Source of the DNA: Escherichia phage vB_EcoM_Kelasse
Sequence record: MW749001.1
Strand: one strand, 5' to 3'
Length of the DNA stretch: 64,000 nucleotides
The position numbers were made by a program, and so were the translations under genes. The stretch's first letter is position 1; the number at the start of each line of letters is the position of its first letter. Shown one piece after another: positions 7,980 to 31,583 of the stretch. The notes beneath the pieces are model-generated. The model ran no database searches, was not told the origin of the DNA, and saw nothing but the letters and a program-made list of their open reading frames with translations.

Positions 7980-8222
7980 TTATTCCTTAATTCCTAATAC
8001 TTGTTTAAAAGTCTCGTCGTAATCAAGACTTTGGCCCGTTTGTTCTTTATGTTTGTATATAATATCACTTACTTCTGATAGCATATTTTTATATGAACGA
8101 GTTAAAGCAGATTTAAGCACGCTGTATCTATCAGGAAATTTACCATGTTCATTATAATAAGCTATTGCTAATTCACGGACTGCCTTTTCAGCAGCCTCCA
8201 TATATTCTTTACGCTTGGTCAT
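7980..8222 (-). CDS. hypothetical early protein (80 aa)
   Basis: ORF directly downstream of nrdC. Confidence 0.5.
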
Positions 8223-8224
8223 TT

Positions 8225-8614
8225 TTAATCCAAAATATTATTAGGCATTGGTTGAACACTCACAAGTTCTTTAAAGAACTCAGTAGAGTCAGGCAATTTA
8301 ACCATTTCCGGAGCATGCTTACTGAATTTATGTTTACATTGACGGCATTTATATTCAAGCTCTGGTTTACGCCAGTTAATCAATTGAACTTGTTCAGTAC
8401 CGCATTCAGGGCAATTAGGAACGTTTTTAGAAGCTCTTTCACGTCGTTCAACCATAGCCATAATAGCATCCCATGCTGGAGGTTTAAAATCTAAATCGTC
8501 GCAGCCGTGAATCTTTCCACGCATTTCCATATCATCTTCCTCACCAGCCATAATAATTTTAATTAAACTGGAATTACTTGAAGCTGCAATGTCTTCTAAT
8601 AAACGCTTTTTCAT
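8225..8614 (-). CDS. hypothetical zinc-ribbon protein (129 aa)
   Basis: CPECG...CRQC four-cysteine motif. Confidence 0.5.
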
Positions 8615-9540
8615 TTCAATACCTCAATAGCATTACGTAAACCATTTGCTTTTGCATTAAGAGCTTTTAACAATTTGGTGTGTTCTGCAATTTGGGCTTC
8701 AACTTCAATCAAACGGGCATTGAGATATTCACGTTCTTCACTCAGATTATCAACCTTTTCTACTTTAGGCTCTTTTACAACTGTCTTATATGTATTAGGG
8801 TTCTTCAGTTTAATTAGAATGCGTGAACTGTATAACATTGAACCATTATCTTCGGTTTCGTCATACATTTCCACTACGTCCATAATTTTTAACATCATGC
8901 GGAGTTTATAAGACAACGAACGAATAGTTTTGTTGTGCTTATTAATTTCTTTAGCTGTCATGGTGCCAAGATTACGTGAGTAATAATAAGGAACCTGGAT
9001 ATTAATTAATACTGATGAACCACCTGGCTTGTGTGTTACTTCATCAGCAATAACCCAGTCCTTAACATGAACTGTATTTGTACGGTCATCGCCCGCGGTA
9101 AATAGTTTGCGAGCATGCTTAAAAAGCATATTCACTTGGTCATTGAATTGACAAGCAAATTTATCAGCAAATTTAGTTTCAGGAATGGTAGAAAACCAAT
9201 CAGCCAAATGAGTCTTTTTAACATCATTAACAATAGTAAATTCAACCAAATCGGTTATAGATGTCTCAGATTTAATGAAGCTCGGCTTCATAAAGTTTTT
9301 AATGTTCTCATGAGCTACAGTAGAAGATAACATACGAGAACGTTTAAACCATTCAAGCAAATTGCCTAACGAATGAGAATAAGCGTTTTGAGTATCTTTA
9401 CAGATATGATTTTCCTGACCAACATATTGAAGGAAATCACGAAGAATATTATTGATTACTGCTCTGTGCCCGATCTGATAATTACGGTGTTTAGTAATAA
9501 GACTGTCAAAATAATCAATATAATGTTTACGAGTTTTCAT
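8611..9540 (-). CDS. hypothetical early protein with C-terminal coiled coil (309 aa)
   Basis: ORF; last ~45 aa form heptad-like amphipathic helix ([42 protein letters not shown]) after a Pro/Lys-rich linker. Confidence 0.55.
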   Translation of the reverse strand: MKTRKHYIDYFDSLITKHRNYQIGHRAVINNILRDFLQYVGQENHICKDTQNAYSHSLGNLLEWFKRSRMLSSTVAHENIKNFMKPSFIKSETSITDLVEFTIVNDVKKTHLADWFSTIPETKFADKFACQFNDQVNMLFKHARKLFTAGDDRTNTVHVKDWVIADEVTHKPGGSSVLINIQVPYYYSRNLGTMTAKEINKHNKTIRSLSYKLRMMLKIMDVVEMYDETEDNGSMLYSSRILIKLKNPNTYKTVVKEPKVEKVDNLSEEREYLNARLIEVEAQIAEHTKLLKALNAKANGLRNAIEVLK

Positions 9541-9592
9541 ATTCTTCTCACTTGGTTAATGGTTTATACTCCGAGCCATCCTTGGCTTTAAA

Positions 9593-10594
9593 TTACTTAA
9601 TTAACTGTAAAGCTTGTTCAAGACGATCAAGACGATTAACGGATTCTTCCCAAATCTTTTTAGCCTGCTCATATTCTTTCTGCGCTTTATTAGAAATTTC
9701 TAGAACTTCTTTATAAGCTTTTTCTAATGCAATAACTTCTGGACGAATTTCTACCGGTTCAGGTGAATCATCAAGACATTCCATTAGTTCCTCAAGGGTA
9801 GTTTCTTCTTTAGGAGTATTCACAATTTCATCACATTTTTGTTGGTAAATTTCTTTACTAGTAGGTGAATAAGCACATTTCACTTCACGAAGACTAATTA
9901 CAATTTTATATCCTTCCCATCCGCATATATTCTTAAAAGGATATGTATGAATATTTTCTACTGTTTCCATACAAAGTAATGCAGTCTCTAACTGACGAGT
10001 TATAGTGCTAGCAATTGAGAAAAATTTATTAATGTTCTTTTGGTTAGTTTCTGGTGTAAAAAATCCATAATTCACAAAAATAGCTACTTTATTTTTATCA
10101 AGCTCATATTCTTTTATGATAATCATATCAGAAGCCAAAGGATGAATTTGACGATAATCGCCATAGCATAATTTAGAAGCTGATTTTAAAATTTGCTTTT
10201 TGAAAAGTCTGAAATTACTAATCCAACGACGAGTAAAAATATTCTCAGGGTCTTCTTTATTATTAAGATGATAAGAATTAACATCACCGAACCAATTATA
10301 TCCTACTACATCTTTAGTTCGTTTAATTTCTTTCCCAAAATTACCAAGAATATCCCGATTAACCAAATATGAAAGAAGACGAGACTCTTTAAAGGTTTTC
10401 TTGATAACATCTTTATCTACACGGCTAGAAATTTTACGAATTTCATGAATAAATTTAGTAGAAGAAACAATACTTGCATCAACACTATTGAGCCATTGAT
10501 TGATAATAGAAAGAACGATATTTTGACCAAACATCGGTATAGCTTTATCATCAATAACGCTATTGAATGATTTGATATATTCGTTACGAGTCAT
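9593..10594 (-). CDS. hypothetical early protein with C-terminal coiled coil (about 333 aa)
   Basis: ORF track frame 9593..10645; first ATG lies inside the promoter-like element, so start placed at MTRNEYIKSF; C-terminal helical tail. Confidence 0.55.
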   Translation of the reverse strand: MTRNEYIKSFNSVIDDKAIPMFGQNIVLSIINQWLNSVDASIVSSTKFIHEIRKISSRVDKDVIKKTFKESRLLSYLVNRDILGNFGKEIKRTKDVVGYNWFGDVNSYHLNNKEDPENIFTRRWISNFRLFKKQILKSASKLCYGDYRQIHPLASDMIIIKEYELDKNKVAIFVNYGFFTPETNQKNINKFFSIASTITRQLETALLCMETVENIHTYPFKNICGWEGYKIVISLREVKCAYSPTSKEIYQQKCDEIVNTPKEETTLEELMECLDDSPEPVEIRPEVIALEKAYKEVLEISNKAQKEYEQAKKIWEESVNRLDRLEQALQLIK

Positions 10595-10619
10595 ATTAAT
10601 CTCCTCAGTAGAAAGTAAG

Positions 10620-10653
10620 AACATTATACCACATCCTTGTGGCAAAGTAAACT
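10620..10653 (-). promoter_or_regulatory. T4-type early promoter
   Basis: Minus-strand GTTTAC, 17-bp spacer, GTATAAT extended -10. Confidence 0.55.
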
Positions 10654-11536
10654 AGTTCAGTGCATTTAGTGCATTGTTCAGTTTAGAACGTTGCTTCGTG
10701 AGATTTTTGACTTTTTCTTGTGCTTTTTCTAGCATCTTTTCAGCTTCTAACACTTCATTGGTCGCTTTAACGAGTTCATCATCTACTGCCTTAAGGGACT
10801 TCTCAATCGCATCCGCGTGCCATTTTTCAACAGGTTTAAGACTCGGATTTTCAATAGGAAGAAAATTCACTTTATTGAATTTCCATGCATCTTTATTACC
10901 TGAACTATACATCCAAAATTTAGGATCATTTGACGAGTAATTAGATAAATTTAAGTTATCTTGCACTTCCTGCTTTTTCTCTTGCGGGACTTCGTCCTTT
11001 CTCAAAAAATCGTATTTAAATGAAACGATCATATCAAGTTCATATGTTGTCGTATCTAATTTAAATCGTTCGAAATGCTGCGAAATCTTAGATTGAACAG
11101 CAGCAACAACATCCATATACTTAAATGCTTCTGTCAGCTGTGATTTAAGACATTCACAAATTGAAAGAGAATTTTTTGTATTAGGTTTAAAGCTAATTCG
11201 TGCAGTTCTATTATTTTCTTTTAATGGTCTTACTTCCATCTGAAGAGTATAACCATCAAATTTCAGGTTCTTTAAGTTAATATCAGAACCTTTTAATCGA
11301 CTAGCCGTCGACAAAATTTGCTTTAATTGTTTACGGAATAGAGCAATAAATCTCCATTCAATACGATAATGATTTGGATTGAAAAATCCAGATGATAAAT
11401 CGACCTTACTCTGACCAACACCTTGAACAAATAGAGGATTTTTATAATCAATAGTTTTACAGAAATCGGTGAGCTGCTCACGAGCAGTCCATTTGAGTAA
11501 TATACCCTGCTTCATTAAAATGACGTAACCATTCAC
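10652..11536 (-). CDS. hypothetical early protein with C-terminal coiled coil (294 aa, start may be internal)
   Basis: ORF; KPVEKW linker followed by helical C-terminus EAEKMLEKAQEKVKNLTKQRSKLNNALNALN. Confidence 0.55.
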   Translation of the reverse strand: MNGYVILMKQGILLKWTAREQLTDFCKTIDYKNPLFVQGVGQSKVDLSSGFFNPNHYRIEWRFIALFRKQLKQILSTASRLKGSDINLKNLKFDGYTLQMEVRPLKENNRTARISFKPNTKNSLSICECLKSQLTEAFKYMDVVAAVQSKISQHFERFKLDTTTYELDMIVSFKYDFLRKDEVPQEKKQEVQDNLNLSNYSSNDPKFWMYSSGNKDAWKFNKVNFLPIENPSLKPVEKWHADAIEKSLKAVDDELVKATNEVLEAEKMLEKAQEKVKNLTKQRSKLNNALNALN

Positions 11537-11672
11537 TGCTATTCATATATTTAAAGTGAATATCACGATTAACTTTATCAGGGTCTAAATTATTTTGACA
11601 CAAAAATGTCATAACATCACGAGTATAGCTGGCATTACGAACCATATCTTCAATTTGAGAACGAGTTTTCAT
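11478..11672 (-). CDS. small hypothetical ORF (64 aa)
   Basis: ORF overlapping the start of the downstream gene. Confidence 0.35.
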   Translation of the reverse strand: MKTRSQIEDMVRNASYTRDVMTFLCQNNLDPDKVNRDIHFKYMNSSEWLRHFNEAGYITQMDCS

Positions 11673-11680
11673 GGTGTTCC

Positions 11681-12589
11681 TTAAGATTTAAGTAAATCGA
11701 CAATTTTAATTAACTTTTCACGCTCAGATTTAGCTTTACTACTCAATCCAGATAGTCTGAAAATTTCATCGTCATAATGTTGAATAGAAATATTCAGCTC
11801 TTCAATTTGCTTATTAAAATAATCAATTTGTTCAGAATGTTTTTCGTTACTACGAACTGGTACAGGTTTTGTAGGCAATTTAGTTAAACTGGATTCATCC
11901 GGGCGATAAATTAAAATGCAATTTGAACCAATCGGGCATTTAGCACCAGATGAATATTCTAACGTTCCAGCTTCTTTTAAAACTTCAAAAGCTAAACAGA
12001 GATGATGCCCCATATTAACATAATCTGTAGAGCGAGCTCTGACGTAATAATCATCGCCGCGAATACTAAATTTAAAGCATTTAAGGTCTTCTGTATTATT
12101 GGTCTTAAAAATCATTTGTTTATCTAGACCTTTAGCTAATCGAGCGCCTAATGCTAATAATCGTCGTTGATTTTCCCACAAATCTGCGATCATTTGGTCA
12201 AATGATAATTTCGGCATTAGTCGACCGTAAAGATCATAGCCTTTATTATAATTGCGAAGAATTTCACTTGCATTAATACGAGACAATGCTCCAATTTTAT
12301 TAAGGGCTTTCATAATGCGATTAGATAAACCCATTCCAGACCCGTTTGTTCGCTGTAAATGTTTTTCTAATCCAAATCCAATATCAACTTTAAACTTATC
12401 TAAAATTTCTGCATGAACATCTCTGTCAATAACATTCAAATCCAAAGTTGGGTTAAATCTATGAAAAAATTTATCTGGCTCTCCACGACGAAGTACAGTC
12501 CATTCATTCAATTTTTTATTAACTAAAGATTTAATTACTGCATTGACATTATTAATTACTACTGACATATTTTCCTCACTCAATTTCAA
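11681..12589 (-). CDS. hypothetical early protein with C-terminal coiled coil (302 aa)
   Basis: ORF; TKPVPV linker followed by helical tail. Confidence 0.55.
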   Translation of the reverse strand: MKLSEENMSVVINNVNAVIKSLVNKKLNEWTVLRRGEPDKFFHRFNPTLDLNVIDRDVHAEILDKFKVDIGFGLEKHLQRTNGSGMGLSNRIMKALNKIGALSRINASEILRNYNKGYDLYGRLMPKLSFDQMIADLWENQRRLLALGARLAKGLDKQMIFKTNNTEDLKCFKFSIRGDDYYVRARSTDYVNMGHHLCLAFEVLKEAGTLEYSSGAKCPIGSNCILIYRPDESSLTKLPTKPVPVRSNEKHSEQIDYFNKQIEELNISIQHYDDEIFRLSGLSSKAKSEREKLIKIVDLLKS

Positions 12590-12983
12590 TTTTACTAAAT
12601 ATACAGAATATGATGGAAAAGACTATATAAGCACCGCATACAGATTGAACTAATACCATTCCAAAGAACCAAACAATATTATCAAACAATGTCTGTTTTA
12701 CGTCGAAAGGACGTAAACTTACAGTAATATTATCGCCTTTTTCTATTGATGAATACATCTCTGGGGAAATATATTCGCTAAATCTATAACCGTCTTTGAG
12801 TTCATATACGGCAATAAACGATAAACTAGACCCCTTTCCTTGAGTTCCTGTAAGGGTATTAACTACAGTAACATCATAATCTTTATAATGCATATAATCA
12901 TTAATTGCGTAATAACCATATGCAATTACTATACATAAACAACATATCAATAAATTCAATCTTTTAATTATCAACTGTTTCAT
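12576..12983 (-). CDS. membrane protein (135 aa)
   Basis: Hydrophobic segments at N- and C-termini (LLICCLCIVIAYGYYAI; IVWFFGMVLVQSVCGAYIVFSIIFCIF). Confidence 0.5.
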   Translation of the reverse strand: MKQLIIKRLNLLICCLCIVIAYGYYAINDYMHYKDYDVTVVNTLTGTQGKGSSLSFIAVYELKDGYRFSEYISPEMYSSIEKGDNITVSLRPFDVKQTLFDNIVWFFGMVLVQSVCGAYIVFSIIFCIFSKIEIE

Positions 12984-13004
12984 AATAATCTCAATTAAAA
13001 GGGC

Positions 13005-13040
13005 TTAGAACCATTATACCATCCTTGGTATAAAGCGGTT
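13005..13040 (-). promoter_or_regulatory. possible middle (MotA-dependent) promoter
   Basis: Minus-strand GCTTTA (MotA-box-like) 12 bp upstream of TATAAT; upstream of the membrane-protein gene. Confidence 0.3.
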
Positions 13041-13566
13041 ATGCGAGTACCGTCTTTAACCGTTCTTCAAACTTCCGAAGAGTATTCTGGCGTTCAGCTC
13101 TTTGCTTTTTGTAAGTTTCAATACGCTCTGAAATGAGAGTGTATCGTTCATTTACTGATTCTTTCATAAAATCAGGAATTTCACGAGAAGCTTTAATCTC
13201 GTCAAATTTATCAATAACAGCTTGCTCTTCAGCAATTAAGTTATCATACATCAAAATATCTTTCTTGATGAACTCAATATCTTCTTGAGTTACACGAGAT
13301 AATTTAGATGCTTTATCCTTTTTGTACTGTTCGTTAGTATCACGAGACCAGTGTAATGTACGATTTTTATTCGTATTTTTGTAAATTTCTACAATACCAA
13401 TCTCATCGATAATAACGATCCAATTCCAACGAGATTTGTAAATTTGTCCTCCATCAACCGTGATTTCACCTCCAATTGAGATGTCATTAAAGAACTTGCT
13501 TTGAGCTTCAGATTTAAATTTACCATCATTGTAGTTTACCAAGTTGAAAATATCTTTAGCATTCAT
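13039..13566 (-). CDS. hypothetical helical/charged protein (about 175 aa)
   Basis: ORF track frame 13039..13626; start placed at internal Met preceded by GGAGG, because the 5' extension coincides with a promoter-like element. Confidence 0.5.
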   Translation of the reverse strand: MNAKDIFNLVNYNDGKFKSEAQSKFFNDISIGGEITVDGGQIYKSRWNWIVIIDEIGIVEIYKNTNKNRTLHWSRDTNEQYKKDKASKLSRVTQEDIEFIKKDILMYDNLIAEEQAVIDKFDEIKASREIPDFMKESVNERYTLISERIETYKKQRAERQNTLRKFEERLKTVLA

Positions 13567-13579
13567 TTTCTGTTCCTCC

Positions 13580-13603
13580 GTAGTTGATAGTTGTATAGTA
13601 CCA
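13580..13603. repeat. 24-bp dispersed promoter-core repeat (copy 1)
   Basis: gtagttgatagttgtatagtacca, identical to 30809..30832. Confidence 0.85.
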
Positions 13604-13625
13604 CAGAGGAACGGTCTTGTAAACA
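13585..13625 (-). promoter_or_regulatory. T4-type early promoter
   Basis: Minus-strand GTTTACA ... TACTATAC followed by conserved leader AACTATCAACTACGGAGG. Confidence 0.55.
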
Positions 13626-13626
13626 A

Positions 13627-13941
13627 CTAAAAGAAACTTCTTTCACAATTTTTTCCACTGAACCACGCGCTCACTGCTTTCTTAGTCTCAGGAGCAGTGT
13701 TATCCATAAACCATTCAAAGGCAGCCTTTTTATGATTCTGGAGGGCTTCTCGGGCTTTAATCTGCTCACGGTCTATTAACACTAACATATGAGCCTTTCT
13801 TGTCACCAAGGGCTTCTTATGATTTTTTGAATACTCCCAATCATTTGTCCATCGCATCGTTGTTGCGAACTGAAATACTGCTTCTTTAATTTTAGTTTCA
13901 TAAATTTCACGAGCCTTTGAGTATAACATCATTACCTCCAT
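13627..13941 (-). CDS. hypothetical early protein (104 aa)
   Basis: ORF. Confidence 0.45.
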   Translation of the reverse strand: MEVMMLYSKAREIYETKIKEAVFQFATTMRWTNDWEYSKNHKKPLVTRKAHMLVLIDREQIKAREALQNHKKAAFEWFMDNTAPETKKAVSAWFSGKNCERSFF

Positions 13942-14030
13942 TTACCAGTTTAATTCTAGTCATCTTTTTGATGGCAGTCCATATAATCTATTTCTGAACT
14001 GCCTTTTTGTCATAGAAGGCCTCTTATGAA

Positions 14031-14999
14031 TTATTTCAGAAGAGTAACCTCAGCGATTTCTTCCCAACCGTTTTTGTCGGTCATAATAAAGTCAGCAAGA
14101 TAAAGCGCAGTACGCAGTGAAACATTGCGTAAACGATTAACATTGACTTTCATCCATGATAATGCTTTATAAGTTTCTTCATCAGAAAGACCGCGCTTTT
14201 GCATCATGTCAGTTGAAAGAATAACATCTTCAACCCTAACCATAATTTCTTCATTAGTGTGAACACCCAAATCCAAATAAACTGAGCGGGACACTAATGC
14301 TTGTAAATGTGGAGCAAGTTTAGTACCACGATCTAATTCGCGGTCAATGTCAACGTTTGTGATAAAAACAATCGTTCCTTTAAATTCAAACTCACGCTCA
14401 ATGCCTTTTTCTTCTAAGTAAGAAGATGCGGTGCTCCAGCAGACTTTACGGGTCTCTCCGGTGTCCAGAGCAGCTTTCAGAAGATTAAGAATGTCCATAT
14501 CAGAGAAAACATCCACATCATCAATCAAAAGGACAGAATTCTCTTCACGATTATTCCAAAGCTGCTCATAAAGACCAATACCAGAGATTTTACCATTAAT
14601 GCTTTTATACTCAATGTATCCAATATCATTTGCTTTATTTAAAGCTTTATCTAAAGAATACGTTTTACCAATACCTGCTGCTCCCGAGATAATTAATGAA
14701 CGAATGTTTCCGTTAATAATACCATTCGTCATCATTCCCATAACATTAAATCTTTTATTAATGCGGGTTTTCATATCTTCATACGATTCTTTAACTTCTT
14801 CAACTTTTACACCATCATATGAAATGTCTGATTTGTAAACCCAAACACCGCGACGCTTACCGTCAATTTCAACAAAAACTTTACCATCTCCTTGTGCATC
14901 TACCGGAGCATTATCTGGGAACCATTCACCTAAGAGCTCAAAAGTTCCAGAGATTTCTTTGCCAAAGTAGATACCCTTATTGATAGTTACAGTTTTCAT
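14031..14999 (-). CDS. P-loop ATPase (AAA-like)
   Basis: Walker A GAAGIGKT and Walker B-like VLLIDDVD in a 322-aa ORF. Confidence 0.7.
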   Translation of the reverse strand: MKTVTINKGIYFGKEISGTFELLGEWFPDNAPVDAQGDGKVFVEIDGKRRGVWVYKSDISYDGVKVEEVKESYEDMKTRINKRFNVMGMMTNGIINGNIRSLIISGAAGIGKTYSLDKALNKANDIGYIEYKSINGKISGIGLYEQLWNNREENSVLLIDDVDVFSDMDILNLLKAALDTGETRKVCWSTASSYLEEKGIEREFEFKGTIVFITNVDIDRELDRGTKLAPHLQALVSRSVYLDLGVHTNEEIMVRVEDVILSTDMMQKRGLSDEETYKALSWMKVNVNRLRNVSLRTALYLADFIMTDKNGWEEIAEVTLLK

Positions 15000-31019: not shown

Positions 31020-31583
31020 TTATTTATCTAGTTTAGTTATTATAGCTTCTGCGGCAGCTTTTAGCTTAGATGCGGTGTTAATACGATTTTTAATTTCAGT
31101 ATACGCATCGCCAAGAACATCAAGGCTATCAGAATAAACACTTACACTATTGCGTTCGCTATTTGAAATAGAACCTTTAGTTTTACGTTCAAAATCGGTG
31201 TACACGTCTTGAAGATCACGGGCTGCCTTCTTTGCATCATCCAATGCATCAAGAGCTTTATTCAAAGCATTAACATATTTTTTAGTGTCGAACATATTCT
31301 TAGAAATTTTAACAGGTGCACGTTCAGGAGTAGCTAAGGCAGATTTAGGAACCTGAGCGCCAGATGCCAATTTCTTAGAAATTTTGAAAAATGCTTTATT
31401 GAAACTATTTTCTTGACTCATCGTAAAAGAACTATTATCAATGTTATACATTTCAATAGCTTTAGCTTTCCACTTAAGAAAATCGCCACGGTCTTTTGGG
31501 TCCAAGTGGAAGAATACTTTAGTAAGATCTGCTTCAGATGGTAATTTTGCTGCTTCGGTTAAAAATTCGGCGTAGGTTTTCAT
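31020..31583 (-). CDS. internal-protein candidate with capsid targeting sequence (187 aa)
   Basis: N-terminus MKTYAEFLTEA (CTS-like); Lys/Ala-rich helical body. Confidence 0.6.
   Translation of the reverse strand: MKTYAEFLTEAAKLPSEADLTKVFFHLDPKDRGDFLKWKAKAIEMYNIDNSSFTMSQENSFNKAFFKISKKLASGAQVPKSALATPERAPVKISKNMFDTKKYVNALNKALDALDDAKKAARDLQDVYTDFERKTKGSISNSERNSVSVYSDSLDVLGDAYTEIKNRINTASKLKAAAEAIITKLDK

Follow-up and report, generated by a model that had tools for sequence, protein, structure and literature searches.

Paralogy of the nrdC.3 to nrdC.6 genes around the anti-Dsr1 gene nrdC.5 in a T4-like Escherichia phage

Phage inhibitors of sirtuin defences and the nrdC array

The T4 gene nrdC.5 is an early accessory gene that counters Dsr1 (defence-associated sirtuin 1) of E. 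coli ECOR17 (Srikant et al. 2022, eLife, PMC9391042). A deletion mutant regains plating on cells with ECOR17 dsr1 once T4 nrdC.5 is expressed, and the genes deleted in the evolved T4 clones, nrdC.5 included, were classed as non-essential, with nrdC.5 itself called an early gene (PMC9391042). The same study gives no family relationship, coiled-coil tail or mechanism for NrdC.5, and our literature search returned nothing on the mechanism of NrdC.5 or its paralogues, nor on further Dsr1 inhibitors of this family. Here we analyse the gene array that contains nrdC.5 in Escherichia phage vB_EcoM_Kelasse, using a stretch of 64,000 nucleotides from sequence record MW749001.1 (the window, numbered from its first letter). 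The best explanation for nrdC.3, nrdC.4, nrdC.5 and nrdC.6 is that they are full-length paralogues, created by tandem duplication and deep divergence of one head-linker-tail gene of T4-like phages, and that the array most likely acts as an arsenal for host range or anti-defence, an explanation to which we assign a probability of roughly 0.6. The array did not arise by domain shuffling.

The nearest functional analogue is DSAD1, a protein of SPbeta-type phages, which three reports describe as counteracting or inhibiting DSR2 (PMC10973363, PMC11087589, PMC11290490). Like NrdC.5, this small phage protein disarms a SIR2-type NADase defence, with no homology between the two implied. DSAD1 reportedly binds DSR2 directly. 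The two defences differ in what they sense: DSR2 uses a tail-tube sensor, whereas Dsr1 senses phage major capsid proteins through an Avs7-type sensor (PMC13581612).

By its sequence, the genome in the window is a Tequatrovirus (T4-like), with a G+C content of ~35% across the window. The region 8200-14000 is 97-98% identical to many Tequatrovirus genomes and syntenic with T4 nrdC.1 to nrdC.11, and 468 related T4-like phage genomes span the greater part of it; open reading frames (ORFs) were named by comparison with the annotated T4 record and one close relative. Placed between the glutaredoxin gene nrdC and the AAA-type nrdC.10, and all on the minus strand, are nrdC.3 (8611-9540; 309 amino acids (aa), PHROG 1435, with nrdC.4 as its nearest paralogue), nrdC.4 (9593-10594; 333 aa, PHROG 1435, with an MTRNEYI start kept in all homologues), nrdC.5 (10652-11672; Pfam DUF7235, frameshifted here), nrdC.6 (11681-12568; 295 aa, PHROG 2257, the most diverged of the family), nrdC.7 (12576-12983), which encodes a small membrane protein, and nrdC.8 (13039-13566; 175 aa, PHROG 2274), a neighbour with a heptad-like C-terminus. 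A first-pass annotation of the window had drawn five ORFs here, of which 8611-9540, 9593-10594 and 13039-13566 stand as given. The other two need revision: 10652-11536 is a downstream 3′ fragment of nrdC.5, and 11681-12589 most likely starts at the ATG at 12568 and not at the TTG at 12589, because all nrdC.6 homologues begin at the former with MS..IN.

The window gene at 10652-11672 is the orthologue of T4 NrdC.5, and the head-linker-tail build recurs in its paralogues nrdC.3, nrdC.4 and nrdC.6. The locus differs from the described gene in two ways: the orthologue is frameshifted, and the paralogues have only ~15-25% identity to T4 NrdC.5. In the databases, full-length models cover nrdC.5 (Pfam PF23882, DUF7235), nrdC.4 (PF26897) and nrdC.6 (PF26899), alongside PHROGs 1435 (nrdC.4 and nrdC.3), 2351 and 2257. 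These are kept as three separate families of unknown function, which we join here into one superfamily. Our literature search found no paper mentioning PF23882, PF26897 or PF26899, and the joining of three Pfam/PHROG families around an anti-Dsr1 protein appears to be unreported, while the genes themselves have long been known.

Heads of the four paralogues

The heads of nrdC.3 to nrdC.6, described in the first-pass annotation as unrelated N-terminal domains, are related along their whole length, and that part of the earlier description is wrong on the evidence of BLASTP, PHROG 1435, hhalign, Foldseek and a family alignment. Each head spans 230-280 aa, with helices in its N-terminal part and an alpha/beta core after them; in the AlphaFold2 model of nrdC.4 it covers residues 1-235. 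At the level of single sequences, BLASTP aligns nrdC.3 with nrdC.4 at 24% identity over 226 N-terminal residues (expectation value (E) 4e-5, in a small database) and picks up a common motif between nrdC.4 and nrdC.5. PHROG 1435 covers nrdC.3 and nrdC.4 at full length, and phrog_26858 is touched by both nrdC.4 and nrdC.5. Profiles were built from family alignments that drew on 14 related loci from IMG/VR and two annotated phage records (T4 and 310Ecol104PP). With these, hhalign joins full-length nrdC.3 and nrdC.4 at E 2.7e-11 (probability 97%), and nrdC.4 and nrdC.5 at E 2.6e-5 (residues 65-333 against 49-339). When the last 60 residues are removed so that only the heads are compared, the same pairs score E 6.6e-12 and E 2.7e-4. 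In these sequence comparisons, common descent is better evidenced by the heads than by the tails.

Three co-linear head motifs, F-x-[KR]-S-R-[LM]-L-S, F....IL..A.[KR]L..G[D] and a helix ..QL..AL..M..V, are present together with the tail in all groups of an alignment of 23 sequences (A5), and the family tail ends at the very C-terminus in a consensus L-x-x-A-[IL]-x-x-L-K. Because the heads are homologous along their whole length, the tail is read as an ancestral part of one duplicated gene and not as a module grafted onto different domains.

The most diverged member, nrdC.6, was not linked to the family by the small hhalign profiles. A superfamily profile enriched with distant members does reach the nrdC.6 family (E 6e-4; 110 columns of the head), pairing SR[LM]LS with LSR.NA and the IL..A.[KR]L..G helix with RRLLALGARLA.G. 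Past the N-terminal helices, the AlphaFold2 monomer models of nrdC.4 and nrdC.6 (predicted local distance difference test (pLDDT) 82 and 77) go through the same elements in the same order: a helix pair, then a beta-hairpin, a long helix, a second beta-hairpin, the linker and the tail. A Foldseek search of BFVD with the nrdC.4 model recovers nrdC.3 of phage fPS-65 (E 7e-9) and, at full length, nrdC.6 of phage JS10 (E 6.4e-6, probability 1.0). In addition, each of the nrdC.6 and nrdC.4 models matches the family of the other, and the two match six common BFVD proteins of 300-370 aa from phages of Enterobacter, Pectobacterium, Acinetobacter (three) and Erwinia.

Database scans place none of these proteins in a family of known function. 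Pfam, NCBIfam and PHROG scans of the five proteins (nrdC.3, nrdC.4, nrdC.5, nrdC.6 and nrdC.8) returned only DUFs and unknown-function families, with no enzyme family in Pfam or NCBIfam, and PDB sequence searches with single sequences and profiles gave nothing below E 0.1. Matches of nrdC.5 to Cas6b_C, of nrdC.3 to the integrase SAM-like N-terminal domain and of the proteins to generic coiled-coil families lie far below the cut-offs and were rejected; the nrdC.3 similarity, to a domain that comes from tyrosine recombinases (Pfam E 0.12; NCBIfam E 0.003), falls on residues 30-86, within the N-terminal helical part. Among the invariant or near-invariant columns of the nrdC.3/4/5 alignment nearly all are hydrophobic; the only polar exceptions, T2, R3, E291 and E316, all fall outside the globular head, and alignment A5 contains zero invariant columns. 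Since there are no invariant residues of catalytic type in the heads and no enzyme family was matched, a binding scaffold fits better than an enzyme.

Linker and heptad tail

Each of nrdC.3 to nrdC.6 carries a short Pro-containing linker, predicted to be flexible, followed by a heptad-periodic helix of 45-50 aa that runs to the C-terminus, and the linker strings KEPKVEKV, PEPVEIRPEV, LKPVEKW and TKPVPV from the first-pass annotation are all found in the proteins. In nrdC.3 the tail helix (8614-8751, minus strand) covers approximately residues 264-309, with the linker just upstream and containing P248 and P258. The nrdC.4 tail (9596-9742, minus strand) is a single predicted helix at residues 285-332 that ends in RLEQALQLIK, preceded by a linker (9743-9769, minus strand; residues 276-284) of low AlphaFold2 confidence. 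In nrdC.5 the tail is formed by the last 52 aa (10655-10810, minus strand; AIEKS...KLNNALNALN), with the linker NPSLKPVEKWH directly upstream (~10811-10858, minus strand). The nrdC.6 tail (11684-11845, minus strand) is predicted as two helices, residues 242-271 and 277-294, ending in KLIKIVDLLKS, and follows a linker (11846-11890, minus strand; residues 227-241) that contains TKPVPV and is likewise of low confidence. In part of each modelled linker the pLDDT falls below 50 (residues 276-282 of nrdC.4 and 227-241 of nrdC.6).

The tails of the array genes are real and specific, and not an artefact of composition, as judged from heptad statistics, a ranking of ORFs, a strict terminal motif and the AlphaFold2 models. 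We examined the last 42 aa of each protein for hydrophobic enrichment at a/d positions and for 3.5-residue periodicity against shuffles. The a/d enrichment is significant for all five tails, with p <0.0005 for nrdC.5 (enrichment 0.75), 0.0005 for nrdC.6, 0.005 for nrdC.8, 0.017 for nrdC.4 and 0.027 for nrdC.3, and the 3.5-residue periodicity reaches z 8.3 in nrdC.4 and z 6.5 in nrdC.5. Taken together, the heptad signal is strong in nrdC.4 and nrdC.5 and moderate in nrdC.6, nrdC.8 and nrdC.3. When the 75 non-overlapping window ORFs of >=90 aa are ordered by heptad score, these five tails occupy ranks 1, 3, 4, 5 and 6, and the hypergeometric probability of finding all five in the top six is ~3.5e-7 (our own calculation). 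Heptad periodicity beyond expectation, a check named beforehand, was thus borne out. The sole ORF from outside the array in the top six is 31020-31583 (minus strand), which belongs to PHROG 2280, a family of unknown function.

A strict C-terminal motif, [LIVMF]xx[AIV][ILV]x[VLAI][LIV][KN] with at most one further residue, matches nrdC.3, nrdC.4, nrdC.5 and nrdC.6 and no others among the 158 ORFs of >=50 aa in six frames. It also occurs in 7 of 10 relatives that were not used in its design, and the most distant relatives account for two of the three misses. Counted from the C-terminus, the heptad register is the same in nrdC.3, nrdC.5 and nrdC.6. These results bear on a further explanation, in which the C-terminal likeness is a generic Lys/Glu-rich helical composition and the genes are merely neighbouring hypothetical early genes. 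The low pairwise identity of the tails, the several tail pairs that do not rise above shuffles, and the heptad-like ends of nrdC.8 and of the unrelated ORF 31020-31583 would agree with it. We consider it very improbable, as five of the six best heptad C-termini among the 75 ORFs belong to these adjacent genes, the strict motif is exclusive to four of them in the window and recurs in relatives that include other phage genera, the register is common to three members, and full-length homology makes the tails orthologous positions.

The likeness between paralogous tails is limited at the level of sequence. Only 2-6 of the last 21 residues are identical between paralogues, and tail-only hhalign is significant solely for nrdC.3/nrdC.5 (E 3e-4) and nrdC.4/nrdC.5 (E 1.7e-3), with nrdC.3/nrdC.4 at E 0.04; a control with reversed tails, which guards against coiled-coil artefacts, gave E of at least 0.06 for every family. 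C-terminal similarity is therefore confirmed for two pairs and not for others. Within orthologues the tail is better conserved than the head, most clearly in nrdC.4, whose orthologues across genera have a mean pairwise identity of 0.74 in the tail vs 0.51 in the head, rising to 0.89 in the last block. Because orthologue tails are the better conserved part, it is fair to speak of a constrained tail that carries faster-evolving heads. The low similarity of tails between paralogues speaks for tails peculiar to each paralogue and not for a single docking sequence common to all. The first-pass annotation's picture of variable heads on a shared oligomerisation or docking module consequently holds in part: a common type of linker and coiled-coil tail is there and is constrained within orthologues, while the heads are homologous and the tails specific to each paralogue.

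This bears directly on the possibility that unrelated N-terminal domains acquired the same portable linker and coiled-coil module by shuffling, with one common partner or co-assembly through the tail. Such a history could account for the occurrence of one tail type and a common C-terminal motif in all four proteins, and for the nrdC.4 tail being more conserved than its head. A metagenomic protein, P0237, would be its clearest instance, having an exact nrdC.5 tail and a head without detectable family relation. We regard shuffling as improbable: homology and co-linearity of the heads extend to all four paralogues, the paralogue tails differ strongly even in the best tail-only comparison, and the complete build of head, linker and tail is already present in distant members from other phage genera. 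The full-length members P0234, P0235, P0240 and P0241, for example, keep the M(K)TR start, the head motifs, the Pro linker and the tail ending. P0237 may in turn be an assembly chimera, since it comes from a single contig of 803 base pairs (bp) and its head DNA matches no phage record.

P0237 is 173 aa long (locus L019; ENA contig k141_89665, gene 120-641), with the nrdC.5 tail behind a 120-aa head whose DNA is unmatched in 50,697 phage records. It represents either a true head replacement or a chimeric assembly, and we did not use it as evidence. Two partial tblastn matches (H38 and H39) that were candidates for the same arrangement proved to be nrdC.5 genes of the usual kind. In two Klebsiella phages, F48 (L020, 5272-5706) and 17-11 (L021, 3053-3478), proteins of 141-144 aa lie near the single family member and have helical ends (...RFALK and ...YEVLK) that recall the terminal motif; they match none of three local profiles (superfamily, nrdC.6 and nrdC.8).

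The gene nrdC.8, put forward in the first-pass annotation as a possible fifth member, shares only a generic heptad tail. It could be seen as a truncated relative with a short head and the same tail, given that it is adjacent and on the same strand, that its last 42 aa score as heptad-like, at rank 4 of 75, and that it matches a loosened C-terminal pattern. We find this unlikely, because hhalign of nrdC.8 against every family and against the superfamily profile gave E of at least 0.03, one Pro (residue 131) precedes the tail in place of a Pro-rich linker, the strict motif is missing and the register differs, it belongs to a separate PHROG, and it was not recovered at a significant level in either structure search (nrdC.4 and nrdC.6 models against BFVD). 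Family membership is unsupported and nrdC.8 is left out. The claim of a Pro linker with an amphipathic C-terminal helix is upheld, by linker strings, heptad statistics and AlphaFold2, for nrdC.3 to nrdC.6.

Variation and proposed role of the array

The family is narrow. A hidden Markov model search with the nrdC.3/4/5 profile against 1.84 billion representative proteins returned 19 clusters and no more at E <= 1e-3. Among the members that were followed to annotated phage records, P0240 belongs to T4-like phages of Klebsiella, Raoultella and Citrobacter, and P0234 to T4-like phages of Klebsiella, Enterobacter and relatives. In Klebsiella phages (Marfavirus, Jiaodavirus), P0234 and P0240 are single-copy and syntenic, lying between an nrdC.11-type nucleotidyltransferase and nrdC. 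The other E. coli T4-like phages sampled, whose NrdC.4 is only 38-50% identical (L008-L016), have nrdC.4, nrdC.5 and nrdC.6 without nrdC.3, and Tequatrovirus has all four genes. With a single copy or three genes elsewhere and four in Tequatrovirus, the array apparently grew by tandem duplication.

Individual members are also lost, broken or rearranged in natural isolates. Phage LYE-01 (L017) has no nrdC.4, phage Ec_YwIITB1 (L018) has nrdC.5 in two pieces, and in a further locus (L007) nrdC.4 is split into two ORFs. The protein P0120, on contigs up to 167 kilobases, is an nrdC.5::nrdC.3 deletion chimera in which nrdC.4 was removed at a short FN..VN microhomology, and P0122 of Shigella phage Sf25 is an nrdC.6 with an internal tandem duplication of 83 aa. 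Between the window and T4, DNA identity across the block is 94-99%. The exception is nrdC.2 with most of nrdC.3 (8200-9450), a mosaic patch where identity drops to 25-80% and which ends sharply against flanks of 98-99%. The lost and broken members, together with the mosaic patch, are the behaviour of dispensable, host-dependent accessory genes. Array content differs among otherwise close Tequatroviruses, and nrdC.3 occurs in at least two allelic types, in which the N-terminus and tail are conserved and the middle of the head is replaced.

The nrdC.5 gene of the window is itself interrupted. An extra G at 11489/11490 (minus strand) gives CAA ATG G ACT here vs CAA ATG ACT in relatives, and the resulting +1 frameshift, with a stop at 11480-11478, splits the gene into ORFs 11478-11672 and 10652-11536. 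None of the 488 phage records matching the 121-base stretch has the extra G; the closest reaches 99.2% identity (120 vs 121 bases), and a 100% match is absent. As a private feature of this genome, the insertion reflects either a recent mutation or a sequencing or assembly error, and programmed frameshifting was rejected because the extra base is in none of the related records. Orthology is clear: the two fragments have 86% and 91% identity to T4 NrdC.5 (alignment A1), with a DNA identity of 94%, and the repaired protein matches DUF7235 (PF23882) at full length with 407.6 bits (E 5e-122; gathering score 30 bits). DUF7235 is matched by 6 of the 23 superfamily members, and nrdC.3, nrdC.4 and nrdC.6 have no DUF7235 match singly. 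The window thus holds an orthologue of the anti-Dsr1 gene with a broken reading frame, and the only characterised member of the family is inactivated in this genome unless the extra base is a sequencing error. Judging from this sequence, the phage probably has no functional anti-Dsr1 activity and may be Dsr1-sensitive.

The anti-Dsr1 activity of nrdC.5, combined with the paralogy of nrdC.3, nrdC.4 and nrdC.6, makes an anti-defence arsenal the most likely role of the array. In the mechanism we propose, each paralogue would oligomerise through its tail as a coiled coil, probably with copies of itself given that the tails are paralogue-specific, and the heads would serve as binding surfaces that diverged toward different host proteins. 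Stoichiometric binding, strengthened by avidity, could then let each paralogue neutralise a defence sensor or effector of its own.

Several points weigh against this proposal. The anti-defence role of nrdC.3, nrdC.4 and nrdC.6 would be an extension by homology from nrdC.5 at 15-25% identity, and the action of NrdC.5 by direct binding of Dsr1 is itself putative. Tail oligomerisation is suggested by heptad periodicity and a monomer AlphaFold2 model, and the helix could instead pack on a partner or on the head. For nrdC.6 the sequence link is weak (hhalign probability 28%), and its placement comes mainly from predicted structures with low TM-scores (0.39 and 0.45) attributed to the flexible tail. 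The family alignments are also shallow and dominated by close relatives.

A different function has been implied by the position beside nrdC and by the 'thioredoxin' labels that are widespread in GenBank: the proteins might act not in anti-defence but in nucleotide or redox metabolism, or might be virion or assembly components with a core like that of tail terminator or completion proteins. For thioredoxin or glutaredoxin, CxxC is found in 0 of 5 proteins, no such Pfam or NCBIfam match was obtained and the predicted fold is different; the labels on nrdC.1 to nrdC.10 in many phage records are therefore unfounded, having been inherited from the locus name. For virion proteins, the likeness is to the lambda gpU-like alpha/beta proteins of tail termination and completion (3fz2, 8bcp, 6tba), a fold-level resemblance of the alpha/beta core only, with an identity of 4-15%, and these proteins gave no sequence-profile matches to the nrdC proteins. 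Unlike them, the nrdC proteins have an added N-terminal helical part and a coiled-coil tail, nrdC.5 is early and among the genes classed non-essential (PMC9391042), and the whole array lies in the T4 early region. As members are moreover lost or broken in natural isolates, there is very little to recommend a role in metabolism or the virion.

The same resemblance admits a more speculative variant of the anti-defence role, in which nrdC.3 to nrdC.6 would be early oligomerised decoys. Here the tail-terminator-like alpha/beta core would mimic a conserved virion fold, and each paralogue would occupy a different Dsr1/Avs-type sensor before late structural proteins appear, blocking activation without triggering it, in essence a 'sensor sponge'. 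We consider this a long shot; if it were true, the paralogue array would act against structure-guided bacterial immunity.

The surroundings of the four genes were also inspected. Directly upstream of nrdC.4 is a match to a sigma-70-like promoter consensus (TTTACT-17-TATAAT with an upstream TG; 10623-10651, minus strand), which is a consensus match only; the total of such matches in the region is not above shuffles (40 vs 33.8 +/- 5.9). Two uncharacterised array neighbours have matches under the cut-offs: nrdC.10 (14031-14999) has weak sub-threshold P-loop matches (AAA_14, AAA_22, nSTAND3), and nrdC.2 (8225-8614) has a zinc-ribbon motif (Zn_ribbon_8, E 7e-6).

Most of the nrdC-mobD accessory block of T4, the reference phage, is still annotated as 'hypothetical', and nrdC.5 is the only characterised gene there. 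Under the paralogy and anti-defence explanation preferred here, four anonymous ORFs become one family, with the prediction that each paralogue would neutralise a different host defence and that the tail would be its oligomerisation handle. The analysis also corrects a widespread 'thioredoxin' mislabelling. The paralogues are candidates for host-range screens and for the engineering of therapeutic T4-like phages.

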